A DNA stretch of 64,000 nt from a virus (taxonomy: Duplodnaviria > Caudoviricetes), in IMG/VR virus record IMGVR_UViG_3300028591_000104, positions 1 to 64,000 of that record, one strand, 5' to 3'. The notes under the pieces were generated by a model, which saw only the letters and a program-made list of their open reading frames with translations, made no database searches and was not told where the DNA came from. The number at the start of each line of letters is the position of its first letter. The stretch's first letter is position 1. This document shows positions 34,756-48,219 of this stretch, in pieces. The position numbers and the translations under genes were made by a program.

Positions 34756-35142
34756 GGTGGTCTTAAGGCGGGACAGGTTGAGTTAGCAGGAGTATAATTA
34801 CCCGAAGTTAAAAACATCATAGGCAAGATGGACTCAAATCAACCGGTTAATGGTTTGAGAGATCTCCACCTGAAGGACCAGGTCTAGGCAGACAGTATTG
34901 CCCTAGATACAACAGTACCCGATTGCATGCCCGAATTTCGACCATAGTGTGGGAGTCGTAGAACGGAGTGAAGCTGAAGGTTTTTAGCGATTTTAGTTTA
35001 ATGGTTGTTATGAGGCTAGAAAGCAGCATCAGGGTAGCTGTAGGCAGGTAGACGAAAGTGATAGCCTTTAACCGATTACAAATAACGGGAAGTCTCAAAT
35101 GAGATTGGGGTTCAATTCCCCCTAGCCTTGTAAGAGCCATTA
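34756..35142 (+). ncRNA. candidate large structured RNA ending in a tRNA-like T-arm/acceptor domain (35009-35132)
   Basis: TATGAGGCTAG/CTAGCCTTGTA stem, TCTCA-AA-TGAGA hairpin, GGGG-TTCAATT-CCCC. Confidence 0.5.
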
Positions 35143-36239: not shown

Positions 36240-36366
36240 AAGAAGGATTAGTTCGTTCTGGTTCGTACTAATTTAAATGATAGACCAACGGAAGACAATA
36301 AGGGACCCTTTAACCATGTCTTGACGCTTGAACCTTCTATATTTTATAAAAGAGCAGGTACAATTT

Positions 36367-36771
36367 ATGTTAATAGAAAACAATAAACAAAAAGGAAATG
36401 CTGGATTGGCATTAGGAATAGCTTAGTTTGGTGCTAATGGTTATACAGTTTCTTTACCTCTTAATGATACTCAATGGTATGATTTTATTGTTGAAAAAGA
36501 TGGTATTTTTCAAACTGTTCAATGTAAGTTTACTGACTCTAAAGATAATAGAATTAGTTTAAGATCTACTGGAGGAACTAATGGTAAAGTATATGACAGA
36601 GTAATTGATCATCCAATAGATTTGTTATTTTGTTCTAATGCAAATAATATGTGGGTTATTCCAATGGAAGAATTAAGATTACAAGGAAATGTTAGTTCTA
36701 TAGCTTTAAGAACAGAATTAAATTCTAATAATCAAGGTTTTGAAACTTGTAAATATTTAGTAAAAATTTAA
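36367..36771 (+). CDS. PD-(D/E)XK homing endonuclease (I-Ssp6803I-like), TAG at 36424
   Basis: KGNAG..GIA*FGANGYTVSLPLND..WYD..VQCK; absent from the ORF track because of the TAG. Confidence 0.8.
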
Positions 36772-36774
36772 AAT

Positions 36775-36860
36775 GGAAGAGTAAACCGTAATTGGTAGCG
36801 GGCGTGGCTGTAGACCACGTGTCAGTGACTCTGGGGGTTCAAGTCCCTCCTCTTCCACCA
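36775..36860 (+). tRNA. tRNA-Tyr(GUA)
   Basis: Loop CT-GTA-GA, long variable arm, G1-C72, A73, CCA. Confidence 0.85.
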
Positions 36861-36865
36861 TTTAT

Positions 36866-37418
36866 CGAAGCATCTTCTAATGGTTAGGAAACTTGTCTGA
36901 TTTGAAGAATTAATCATTAATTTTAAACTATGTTAAATACAAAACAGCGTGGAAACATAACAGAATTACAATGTATGTTAGCATTTTTAAAATTAGGATA
37001 CAATGTATTAACTCCTTAGGGTGATTGCGAACGATATGATTTTGTAGTAGATATAAAAGGTAATTTTTATAGAATACAAGTTAAATCGGCGAATGCAAAC
37101 CACCTAGAAGAAGGATATATAGTATTTAATACTTCTAATAAAACTACTAGGGGAGGAACTTTTGTTCGTCATCCATACACAAAAGATGAAATTGATTATT
37201 TCGCAACATTTTTTAATGAGCAATGTTATTTAGTACCAGTGAATGAATGTAGTATTTTTGAAAAAAGATTACGATTTACTCCTCCAAAAAATGGACATAC
37301 TAAAGGAATAACATTTGCTACTGAATATGAATTAGAAAAGGTGGTGAAAAAAATAATTAATGAATAACATCTTTGAATCAAGCAAGTAATGGTAGTTCGA
37401 TTCTATCTGCTTCGACCA
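36866..37418 (+). tRNA. split tRNA-Ile(GAU): exons 36866-36901 and 37380-37418 with a 478-nt insertion
   Basis: Joined halves give CGAAGCA/TGCTTCG acceptor, CTTGT-CTGATAA-GCAAG anticodon arm, T-arm and ACCA. Confidence 0.8.
36930..37367 (+). CDS. PD-(D/E)XK homing endonuclease inside the tRNA-Ile insertion, TAG at 37017
   Basis: KQRGNITE..LGYNVLTP*GDCERYDFVVD..RIQVKS..EIDYF. Confidence 0.85.
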
Positions 37419-37640
37419 ATGCTCTGGCGCTAGGTCTAAGAGGATAAATTATTTATCTAGCTAACTGCGGGGAAGGAAGTTAAACCGACGAAGAGACTGC
37501 GAGGGTTTACTAGGTCGCGTTGAGGCAGTAATGCCAATAGTGGGTAAGCACCAGGGATGGAAACGCAGAGAGTTCCGAAAAACCTAGTTTTTATTTAGTT
37601 CCTAACCAAATATCCAGAGTATTTTCTTAACAGCCCGTCT

Positions 37641-37969
37641 GGAGGCGTAGGTTATTGAAAGCACCGCAGTGGATTGACGCTGCTAAGACCAGACAGCTGG
37701 CGAATGAGTATTCCTGAATTGCCAGGAAGGTGTGCACCGCACTGGGCCTGCGGGTCCACCCACCTCATACTTGCGGGAGATATAAATGAGACAGAGGGAA
37801 CTCCAGTGATAGATTCGCTGCGCGCGGAGGTTGTGCTCCGCTGAGGGAAGTAGGCCCCTGACACAAGCACTGACCAAGGTAGTAACAGTCCTTGGTAAAC
37901 TGGCAAGCCGATATGCGTCCAGTGCTTTTAATCTCAAAGTGAGAGCGTGGTTCGAGTCCACCTACCTCC
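37641..37969 (+). ncRNA. candidate large structured RNA related to the 35009-35132 element
   Basis: GGAGGCGTAGG/CCTACCTCC closing stem, GAAAGCA, TCTCA-AAG-TGAGA, GTGG-TTCGAGT-CCAC; may extend upstream to about 37420. Confidence 0.55.
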
Positions 37970-38011
37970 CTTAACCGGGGGGTGCAGGTGCAATACCTTT
38001 GAGATTATTAT

Positions 38012-38095
38012 ACCCGAGTGGTGGAAGTGGTAGACACGCTAGTCTTAGAATCTAGTGCCTTGTGCGTAAGAGTTCGAATCTCTTCTTGGGTACCA
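38012..38095 (+). tRNA. tRNA-Leu(UAG)
   Basis: Loop CT-TAG-AA, variable arm, A73, CCA. Confidence 0.9.
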
Positions 38096-38981: not shown

Positions 38982-39351
38982 GGGGGTGTAATAGGTTTCG
39001 ACAGGGTTAAAAAGTTTAGATAAGCGAACAGAGGATTCTCGTTGTGCCTCTATAAAAAACGAGAACTTTTAAATATAATCGCTAATGATTACGCTTTAGC
39101 AGCCTGATAATGCTGCCGTTTACTTTATTTAATCTGTAAGATAAGGTAAATGTACGGTTTCAGACCTTGATTATTAGAGGTGAAATAATCAAAACTTATT
39201 TTAGTGGTTCGGCTAAGATATTTTATTCAGAACTCCTTGATTATTAATTTGCCAATAGAGGAATAATTAAAGGATAAATAAATATTGGCTATGTTCGTAG
39301 AAAGTCTAAGGTTTTTAGTTTTGGACAGGGGTTCGACTCCCCTCACTTCCA
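38982..39351 (+). ncRNA. ssrA: tmRNA, tag (A)ANDYALAA
   Basis: GGGGGTG..TTCGAC 5' end, G3-U70, 3' T-arm, tag ORF ending YALAA-TGA-TAA. Confidence 0.92.
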
Positions 39352-39616: not shown

Positions 39617-40357
39617 ATGAATAGTAAAAACAAAGGTAATATTGGAGAATCTCAAGCTTTAGCTGAATTTACGAAAAGAGGAATACAAGTTTCTATTCCT
39701 TTTGGAGATAATGCTAGATATGATTTAATAGCAGACTTCAACGGAAAATTAAATAAAATTCAAGTAAAATAGTGTAATCAACAAATAGTAAATGGTTCTA
39801 TTAGTTGTCCTTGTGCTAGTAGTACAAATCATACTACAAATAAGCATTATGATACTTATAAAAATGATATTGATTATTTTGTATTTTATTTAGTTGAATG
39901 GGATGACATTATTATTGTTCCTATTGAAGAAATAGGAGATAAAAAAGCAATCTGTTTTAGAAAATCAATACCTGTTTCGAGTCAAAATTATCATTTAGTA
40001 CAAGATTATACTTTTTCTAAATTTTTTGATGATAAAAAAGAAGAAATAGAAGAAAATCCAATTATTGCTCTAAAAAAAATTACAGATAAAAAGAATTATT
40101 GTATAGATTGTAACACTCCCATTACTAAAGGGGCTGTAAGATGTATGAGCTGTGCCGCAAAATTGCGACCTAGGAAAGTTGAAAGACCGACAAGAGAAGA
40201 ATTAAAACAGTTAATTCGTCATGTTCCATTTGTCAAATTAGCTGAACAATATGGAGTAAGTGATAAAGCAATAGCAAAATGGTGTATAGCAGAAAATTTA
40301 CCATCTAGAAAAAAAGATATTTTACTTTACTCTGATGAAGAATGGGATAAAATTTAA
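39617..40357 (+). CDS. PD-(D/E)XK homing endonuclease with C-terminal Zn finger and HTH, TAG at 39770
   Basis: AAGGAG RBS; KGNIGE..VSIPFGDNARYD..KIQVK*C; in frame with the 40145 ORF. Confidence 0.82.
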
Positions 40358-42606: not shown

Positions 42607-42697
42607 CGGGCGGTATGCAAGTGGTCAAAGTACGCGGACTCTAACTCCGATGCCAGTAGCTAAGGCTTCGCAGGTTCGAATCCTGCCCGCCCGACCA
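42607..42697 (+). tRNA. amber suppressor tRNA (CUA) with a tRNA-Tyr-like body
   Basis: Loop CT-CTA-AC (CTA at 42641-42643), GCGGA/TCCG stem, AAGTGGTCAAA D-loop, variable arm ending TTC, C1-G72, A73, CCA. Confidence 0.92.
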
Positions 42698-44355: not shown

Positions 44356-44427
44356 CGGGATATGGTCTAGAGGGCTAAGACGCCGGCGCGGAGCCGGAGA
44401 CGTGAGGTTCGAATCCCACTATTCTGC
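44356..44427 (+). tRNA. atypical tRNA-Pro(CGG) or tRNA pseudogene
   Basis: C1-G72 acceptor, loop CG-CGG-AG, bulged T-stem, no encoded CCA. Confidence 0.5.
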
Positions 44428-48134: not shown

Positions 48135-48219
48135 TGGGGGGTGTCCGAGTGGTTAATGGAGCCAGGCTTTGACCCTGGTAGCTTAGCTTTCGTGGGTTCG
48201 AATCCCACCCCCTCAGCCA
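48135..48219 (+). tRNA. tRNA-Gln(UUG) with an unusual long variable arm
   Basis: U1-A72, G73, loop CT-TTG-AC, variable arm TAGCTTAGCTTTC. Confidence 0.85.

Follow-up and report, generated by a model that had tools for sequence, protein, structure and literature searches.

How can a homing endonuclease gene sit inside the anticodon loop of a tRNA gene when no self-splicing intron surrounds it? To our knowledge, homing endonuclease genes that lie within other genes are otherwise always housed in self-splicing elements. In the phage locus studied here, a tRNA-Ile(GAU) gene is split by little more than the reading frame of such a nuclease. An earlier note, made from the sequence alone, proposed either an intron spliced by proteins or a homing element whose terminal stem preserves processing of the tRNA operon. 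We find that the element is real, mobile, ribozyme-free and widespread, and that its ends form a selected RNA rod with the anticodon. The homing part of the proposal is supported. No ligated junction was seen, and a homing element with an RNA-processing stem is no less probable than a new type of intron.

Results

A tRNA-Ile(GAU) gene split by a nuclease gene

The window, that is the whole 64-kb stretch analysed, is the beginning of a 150,486-bp IMG/VR phage record that is 93% complete; a look-up of sequencing runs traced the phage to sheep gut samples. The split gene, its insert and the two further nuclease genes described below lie on the plus strand. The 5' half of the tRNA-Ile(GAU) gene (36866-36901) comprises the acceptor strand cgaagca, the D arm, the anticodon stem strand cttgt (36892-36896) and the first part of the anticodon loop, with C32 at 36897, U33 at 36898 and the anticodon GAT at 36899-36901. 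The 3' half (37380-37418) resumes with A37, A38, gcaag and the variable loop, followed by the T arm (ggtag-ttcgatt-ctatc), the acceptor strand tgcttcg, A73 and CCA. Between them, at tRNA positions 36/37, lies an insert of 478 nt (36902-37379) in which an ORF takes up 438 nt, leaving 40 nt non-coding; the earlier note had described this arrangement correctly to the base.

Joined in silico, the exons are called by ARAGORN as a 75-nt tRNA-Ile(gat), whose cloverleaf score is 30/30 (21/21 stem pairs and 9/9 conserved bases scored). An insertion-free allele would read cttgtctgataagcaag, with the joined junction ACTTGTCTGATAAGCAAGTAATGG. The phage has a cluster of 26 tRNA genes and a tmRNA, and the split gene is its sole Ile(GAU): the earlier note had seen no second copy in the window, and none was found either there or in the whole 150-kb genome. 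The tmRNA (38982-39351, 131.6 bits) encodes the tag ANDYALAA. At 44356-44427, Rfam recognizes a tRNA (42 bits) that ARAGORN does not call and that has an odd anticodon loop without U33.

The ORF of the insert (36930-37367; 145 codons and TAA) contains one in-frame TAG, at 37017-37019, read as sense. Its product matches Pfam PDDEXK_5 with E=2e-32 (112 bits against a cut-off of 26) and I-Ssp6803I (PDB 2OST) with E=1e-13. The AlphaFold model (pLDDT 91.5) superposes on 2OST with a TM score of 0.79. After 2OST, its nearest folds are those of Hjc Holliday-junction resolvases and EcoRV, all of them DNA enzymes, and EndA is not among them. The catalytic D...(E/Q)xK motif is retained, with D37, Q50 and K52 invariant. 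By sequence and by fold, the ORF belongs to the PDDEXK_5, or I-Ssp6803I-type, homing endonucleases, and its cleavage of the insertion-free gene is a prediction from that kinship.

TAG is a sense codon in this phage. Reading through it lifts ORF coverage from 0.77 to 0.89, and the longest frame grows from 1293 to 3110 aa; across the whole genome, 72 of the 120 frames of at least 150 aa contain it. A tRNA with a CUA anticodon is found at 42607-42697 (91 nt, long variable arm, C1-G72, A73). Its nearest relative among the tRNAs of the genome is the tRNA-Gln(UUG) at 48135-48219, which is 85 nt long and also has a long variable arm, unusual for tRNA-Gln. The TAG of the nuclease aligns with Tyr in its closest relatives and with Tyr or Phe across the family; the residue inserted may be Gln, Tyr or another.

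Two free-standing paralogs of the nuclease lie nearby, each with one in-frame TAG at a position that differs between the two. The first (36328-36771) ends 4 nt before a tRNA-Tyr gene; the second (39617-40357) starts 26 nt after tRNA-Lys(UUU) and has a C-terminal extension (...SDKAIAKWC...YSDEEW) that recurs in the long inserts L010 and L012. More distant relatives, those of Pectobacterium phage My1, Salmonella phage PM10, Synechococcus phage Sf-FR1 and haloarchaeal virus HSTV-4, are likewise neighbours of tRNA genes; these free-standing PDDEXK_5 genes lie in spacers and leave the tRNA whole, unlike the insert described here, which lies inside the anticodon loop. The earlier note had stated that nucleases of this type normally reside in group I introns of tRNA genes. 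This does not hold for the family, most of whose members are beside tRNA genes, or inside them without a ribozyme.

The insert belongs to a family found in phage tRNA genes

Scans of viral contigs yielded 8 loci with a protein query and 75 loci with an alignment query. We placed the junctions independently of the rod described below: all candidate pairs of cut points were joined, those in which ARAGORN did not recognize a tRNA whose anticodon lies at the joint were discarded, and from the rest we took the one most similar to intact tRNAs with that anticodon. The outcome is 34 non-identical split tRNA genes, which represent 8 anticodons (ACG, GAT, GGT, GTT, TAC, TGC, TGT and TTT). All 34 are split at 36/37, and their inserts are mostly 462-488 nt long. 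The intron mode of ARAGORN was rejected for this purpose, since the insertion-free alleles presented below fix the junction at 36/37: it sets the joint off by one base, and reports Asn members as Asp(gtc) and one Thr member as Ser(tga).

Compared with 606 intact tRNAs, the split ones are equally well formed and show no decay of the exons. Positions 32 and 38 do not drift towards a closed pair (pairable in 5/34 split genes vs 25/179), and the native 32/38 mismatch is kept although one mutation could close it. There is no excess of spare tRNA copies either, with 5/34 for split genes vs 45/443 for ordinary ones.

One member looks dead. L041 (7925-8510) has an Asn-type body with the anticodon GCT, an A.A mismatch in its anticodon stem and, like L026 and L027, a T loop without TTC. 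Its rod is nonetheless intact, and the change in the anticodon converts a G.U of the rod to G-C. The complete genome of L041 gives no RtcB, Rnl1 or PF09414 match. Judged from these letters, the rod appears to persist without tRNA function.

No ribozyme core and no bulge-helix-bulge

One known home of this nuclease family is the group I intron in tRNA-fMet of Synechocystis PCC 6803, 655 nt long, which has a self-splicing core and a 150-aa ORF encoding I-Ssp6803I (PMC1995217); the enzyme is a tetramer, resembles Hjc and recognizes a 23-bp pseudo-palindromic target (PMC3384342). The present insert has the same type of nuclease and also lies in the anticodon loop of a tRNA gene. It differs in its size, 478 nt of which 438 are ORF, in lacking a core, in ending in C and in having a rod that pairs with the anticodon.

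With cmscan over 36700-38050, the insert has no match even at E<=10 to any Rfam family, group I, group II and small ribozymes included, and none of 8-12 related insert loci matches group I or II at E<=0.01. The group I core (P3-P9, RF00028) is not detected in the insert. Group I introns end in G and follow a 5' exon whose final U pairs with G in P1. The insert ends in C, in line with the earlier note, which had seen that the last base is not G; across the family, the final base is the complement of anticodon base 34, and the last letter of the 5' exon is C in the Ala and Val members and G in the Arg member. The 40 nt of non-coding sequence compare with some 200 nt or more of structured non-coding RNA in a group I intron. 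No RNA core is concealed in the ORF either, as its synonymous sites vary freely: dS is 0.6-1.1, close to saturation, with dN/dS of 0.24-0.40, the pattern of a sequence under selection as a protein. As for group II introns, there is no Rfam match to domains V/VI, and the ORF encodes a PD-(D/E)XK nuclease, not a reverse transcriptase-maturase. The earlier view that no group I or II core is present therefore stands.

The same is true of its failure to fit a bulge-helix-bulge, because both junctions lie within a continuous helix. Protein-spliced tRNA introns of archaea and eukaryotes are cut by EndA or Sen enzymes and sealed by RtcB or Trl1; they typically lie at 37/38, where two 3-nt bulges flank a 4-bp helix. 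Like them, the phage insert is an anticodon-loop insertion that pairs with the anticodon and has no ribozyme; it differs by its position at 36/37, its uninterrupted helix and the absence of EndA from the phage. EndA (PF01974) gave no match in the phage nor in bacterial control genomes; among 14 control genomes, the matches are confined to four archaea. RNase III was not found in the phage.

The ends of the insert form an RNA rod with the anticodon

The 5' strand of the rod (36898-36908) consists of U33, the anticodon and insert bases 1-7 (ttgaaga, 36902-36908); its 3' strand (37370-37380) consists of tctttga (37370-37376), atc (37377-37379) and A37 (37380). T33 pairs with A37, GAT (36899-36901) with atc, and ttgaaga with tctttga including two G.U pairs. 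In this way the last three insert bases prolong a 7-bp helix into an uninterrupted one of 11 bp, anticodon and U33-A37 included. Beyond a 1x2 internal loop, a second helix joins TTAATCATTAATT (36910-36922, 8 nt before the start codon) to AATTAATGAATAA (37355-37367, over the last four codons and the stop), with 12/13 positions paired. The cofolding energy of the two ends is -23.7 kcal/mol, compared with -7.8 +/- 2.3 for shuffled sequences, and the same rod appears in the minimum-energy fold of the whole 554 nt. The extensive pairing that the earlier note saw prolonging the anticodon stem is thus borne out.

Among 28 distinct rods of the family, 89.9% of the first 11 positions pair in register, vs 40-48% when one strand is slid by 1-3 bases, and most positions show 4-6 pair types. 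The last three bases of the insert fully complement their own anticodon in 7 of the 8 anticodon classes, but in only 5 of 56 cross-combinations; the stem covaries with the anticodon over 8 anticodons, a check that the earlier note had suggested for related phages. The G.U pairs number 43 and the A.C mismatches 4, so that the rod must be selected on the sense strand, that is as RNA and not as a DNA cruciform. In two members, one anticodon position is mismatched: L020 (tRNA-Ile) retains the 'agc' end typical of tRNA-Asn inserts, and L053 (tRNA-Thr GGT) the 'aca' end of tRNA-Thr(TGT) inserts. To judge by their sequence, the ends of both point to an origin in other tRNA genes.

The rod is also roughly symmetric about anticodon base 35, over 8 positions on each side. 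A weak pair at insert base 2 mirrors 32.38, and an A.A at insert base 8 mirrors 26.44; A faces A at insert base 8 in 18-20 of the 28 members. In the Asn subgroup, conserved CUGAC and CUGAUGU motifs face each other. We considered a kink-turn there and rejected it, as the required order of the bulge and the G.A pairs is not matched. A mimic of the T arm within the insert was also considered and is not present in this insert.

Could the rod itself be the catalyst? In such a scheme, the rod with its internal loops would be a small RNA able to cleave or splice itself; it would cut both junctions, and an RtcB-like ligase or the reverse reaction would join the exons. The conservation of the rod and of the A/A internal loop at insert base 8 across tRNA hosts speaks for it, as do the opposed motifs of the Asn subgroup. 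These motifs are missing from the Ile subgroup, however, and no Rfam ribozyme matches at E<=10; moreover, nearly all rod positions covary freely, which leaves few fixed bases for an active site. We consider a catalytic rod very unlikely.

The inserts move between genomes and tRNA alleles

Enterococcus phage EFP01 is the only cultured phage with an insert in the loop, in its tRNA-Asn(GUU) gene. About 30 other Schiekvirus genomes have flanks 94-98% identical to those of EFP01 and an intact tRNA-Asn, the kind of insertion-free allele that the earlier note had proposed to look for. At the place of ctgtt-[463 nt]-aaccagt in EFP01, EFDG1 and phiSHEF16 have actggctgttaaccagt, which sets the junction at 36/37.

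A second comparison is that of L021 (7927-8513) with L023 (7928-8511): their inserts are 99% identical and their flanks 95%, compared with 73% for the tRNA-Asn exons, in which changes in the acceptor, anticodon and T stems compensate one another. Identity of the exons is limited to 8 nt and 5 nt beside the junctions. Near-identical inserts in such exons mean that the insert entered different alleles recently; the exons are either mosaic tRNA alleles or the outcome of fast, structure-preserving change around the homing site. Compared in this way, the sequences indicate that the insert moves between phage genomes and between tRNA alleles. Recent transfer also makes the integrity of the exons, the 32.38 mismatch and the lack of spare copies uninformative on splicing.

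Mobility raises the question of whether the element is excised from DNA. Its inverted ends could extrude as a hairpin or cruciform that mimics the target, upon which the nuclease would restore the tRNA gene in some genomes. Two observations favour this: the closest structural relatives of the nuclease after 2OST are Holliday-junction resolvases (PMC3384342), and one contig from a DNA run joins 36901 to 37383. That contig reads ATT for aag and has 24 letters on one side of the joint; given three differing letters and so short an arm, it is probably the insertion-free allele of a relative and not an excision product. A cruciform, besides, needs both strands, whereas the count of 43 G.U to 4 A.C indicates that only the sense strand forms the rod. 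Excision at the DNA level is thus extremely improbable.

We also set aside two explanations that derive the geometry of the ends from DNA cleavage. Bonocora and Shub reportedly described in 2001 cuts on either side of the anticodon that leave 3-nt 3' ends. If the inverted ends had been made by such 3-nt overhangs of the nuclease, the predicted junction sequences would match, which they do not, and the G.U excess is strand-specific. Nor do we count the 3-nt stagger of the junctions as a trace of the DNA cut, as it follows automatically from insertion at 36/37 and a bulge-free stem.

RNA libraries and RNA ligases

Two contigs from sheep gut RNA libraries of two studies match the locus without mismatch, over 36892-37796 and 36881-37496. 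Both cross the insert, the 3' junction and downstream sequence unspliced. They reach the 5' junction with just 10 and 21 exon letters, below our 31-letter rule. In one library with an unspliced contig, the 640 nt upstream are uncovered. This is a weak hint that the RNA is unspliced and starts near the 5' end of the tRNA. No contig joining the exons (ACUUGUCUGAU|AAGCAAGU) occurs in three RNA libraries, for which only Logan contigs were used; a 75-nt tRNA would not assemble there, and as contigs cannot show a mature, modified tRNA of this size, the missing spliced form is not evidence against splicing.

Just 3' of the split tRNA, the stretch 37620-37970 is GC-rich and without ORF, as is 35009-35132. 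In one sheep-gut RNA library, no other RNA of the region comes near it in abundance (depth 117-185 vs 5-15 for the insert). Its end consists of a hairpin resembling a T arm and a segment complementary to its 5' end, and it has no Rfam match; in relatives, a tRNA sits directly before 37662. It may be a ROOL/GOLLD-like phage RNA. Elsewhere in the family, ROOL RNAs (RF03087, 265-280 bits) accompany two split genes: one is found beside the tRNA-Ala of L009 (831-1423), and in EFP01 (L004, 3934-4520) one follows the tRNA-Asn at a distance of about 460 nt.

The search for ligases and splicing endonucleases, outlined in the earlier note, succeeded in part: outside the window, the phage encodes an Rnl1-type (364 aa) and an Rnl2-type (307 aa) ligase in tandem, while RtcB, EndA and RNase III are absent from it. 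EFP01 has an RtcB-type ligase (KY549443.1, 140344-141453; PF01139, 198 bits). Of 31 insert-bearing contigs, 4 have RtcB; of 18 with a free-standing nuclease gene only, none does. At least one of RtcB, Rnl1 and PF09414 is found in 13 of 17 complete insert-bearing genomes vs 4 of 6 complete genomes with only a free-standing nuclease, and so ligases and inserts are not associated; in four complete insert-bearing genomes, no ligase match exceeds the cut-off.

Discussion

We now propose, at roughly even chances, that the insert is a selfish cassette that is not spliced and whose mRNA uses the tRNA halves and the rod as a scaffold or as a signal for processing. It is a mobile PDDEXK_5 homing-endonuclease element lodged at the usual target of its family, the anticodon loop of a tRNA gene, and its ends prolong the anticodon stem into a closed rod of some 30 bp. 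The rod would serve the cassette and not the tRNA, letting the tRNA halves fold into a tRNA-like body. RNase P and 3'-end enzymes could then trim the chimeric RNA from the transcript of the tRNA operon, the nuclease mRNA being kept as a protected, giant 'anticodon loop'. The stop codon precedes the 3' strand of the rod by 2 nt, and the last codons are themselves part of the second helix; translation and formation of the rod would thus be mutually exclusive. Host RNase III may also cut the rod. While the insert is present, the only tRNA-Ile(GAU) of the phage would be switched off.

A comparable design exists by engineering: Ponchon and Dardel in 2007 reportedly placed foreign RNA on an extended anticodon arm, where it was processed and stabilized like a tRNA. 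Those scaffolds are artificial; by analogy, the phage insert would be a natural one, a selfish element carrying an mRNA.

The identity of the nuclease, the absence of a ribozyme and the mobility all fit an unspliced cassette. So do the sense-strand RNA rod that accompanies the dead-looking tRNA of L041, in a genome without RNA ligase, the unbroken RNA contigs over the 3' junction and the insert ends of L020 and L053, which suit other anticodons. Against it, the one split gene, beside 26 other tRNA genes, is the only Ile(GAU) gene, tandem Rnl1- and Rnl2-type ligases are encoded here and RtcB in EFP01, and the split tRNAs are well formed, keep their 32/38 mismatch and are not backed up by spares. 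The trimming by RNase P/Z and the stability of the chimeric RNA are steps that we infer, and a homing endonuclease inside a gene would here, for once, do without a self-splicing element.

Several of these objections also belong to the case for protein-dependent splicing, which we regard as unlikely, if to be taken seriously. An endonuclease would cut both strands of the rod at the junctions, 3 nt apart with 3' overhangs, and an RNA ligase would seal the exons into a functional tRNA-Ile. The cuts could be made by the enzyme that the insert encodes or by one of the host, and the ligase could be the phage Rnl1 or Rnl2, or an RtcB of phage or host. The full pairing of the anticodon in 7 of 8 classes, as opposed to 5 of 56 cross-pairings, is in favour, as is the rough symmetry about base 35, expected of the substrate of a dimeric enzyme. 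To these are added the ligases, tandem Rnl1/Rnl2 here, RtcB in EFP01 and one or another in 13 of 17 complete genomes; the sole Ile(GAU) gene in a set of 27 genes; and the absence of 32/38 drift and of excess spare tRNAs.

Yet no spliced form was seen, and we know of no bacterial or phage enzyme that makes cuts staggered by 3 nt in an RNA helix that is paired throughout. The stagger, being a consequence of insertion at 36/37 and of a bulge-free stem, is not independent evidence for such an enzyme. The fold neighbours of the nuclease are DNA enzymes with no EndA among them, ligases are about as common in the controls (4/6), and four complete insert-bearing genomes have none over the cut-off. Recent transfer accounts for the intact exons, and L041 keeps its rod with a tRNA that looks dead. 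We accordingly doubt, giving it a real minority chance, that the inserts form a new class of phage-tRNA introns without ribozyme or bulge-helix-bulge, cut by a protein at a symmetric rod and sealed by a ligase.

We know of nothing in bacteria or phages that resembles SOS splicing, a parallel to such a mechanism. In that process, the paired inverted ends of a DNA transposon in animal mRNAs trigger excision and ligation by RTCB (PMC12779559). As in the phage family, the inverted ends of a mobile element pair in RNA; SOS splicing differs in being eukaryotic and imprecise and in acting on mRNAs (PMC12779559).

We found no published description of the insert family beyond the 'enigmatic' tRNA introns of Lak megaphages, which are short, one of them tRNA-like, present or absent among variants, and unclassifiable by Rfam (Devoto et al. 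2019, PMC6784885). They too interrupt tRNA genes of gut phages in which TAG is a sense codon. No nuclease ORF was reported for them, nor any rod pairing with the anticodon (PMC6784885), which sets them apart from the family described here.

In dozens of phage tRNA genes, the family breaks the expectation that a homing endonuclease gene is housed in a self-splicing intron or intein, and its members share a conserved RNA structure that changes with the anticodon. Should the inserts not be spliced, this is a selfish gene that turns off phage tRNAs and borrows the tRNA fold for its own mRNA. If they are spliced, they would be the first protein-dependent introns of bacteria or their viruses, and, with proteins doing the splicing, phage RNA ligases would gain a housekeeping role beyond the repair of tRNAs that host defences have cut. 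EFP01, cultured, with many insertion-free siblings and an RtcB of its own, makes the question of splicing testable at the bench.
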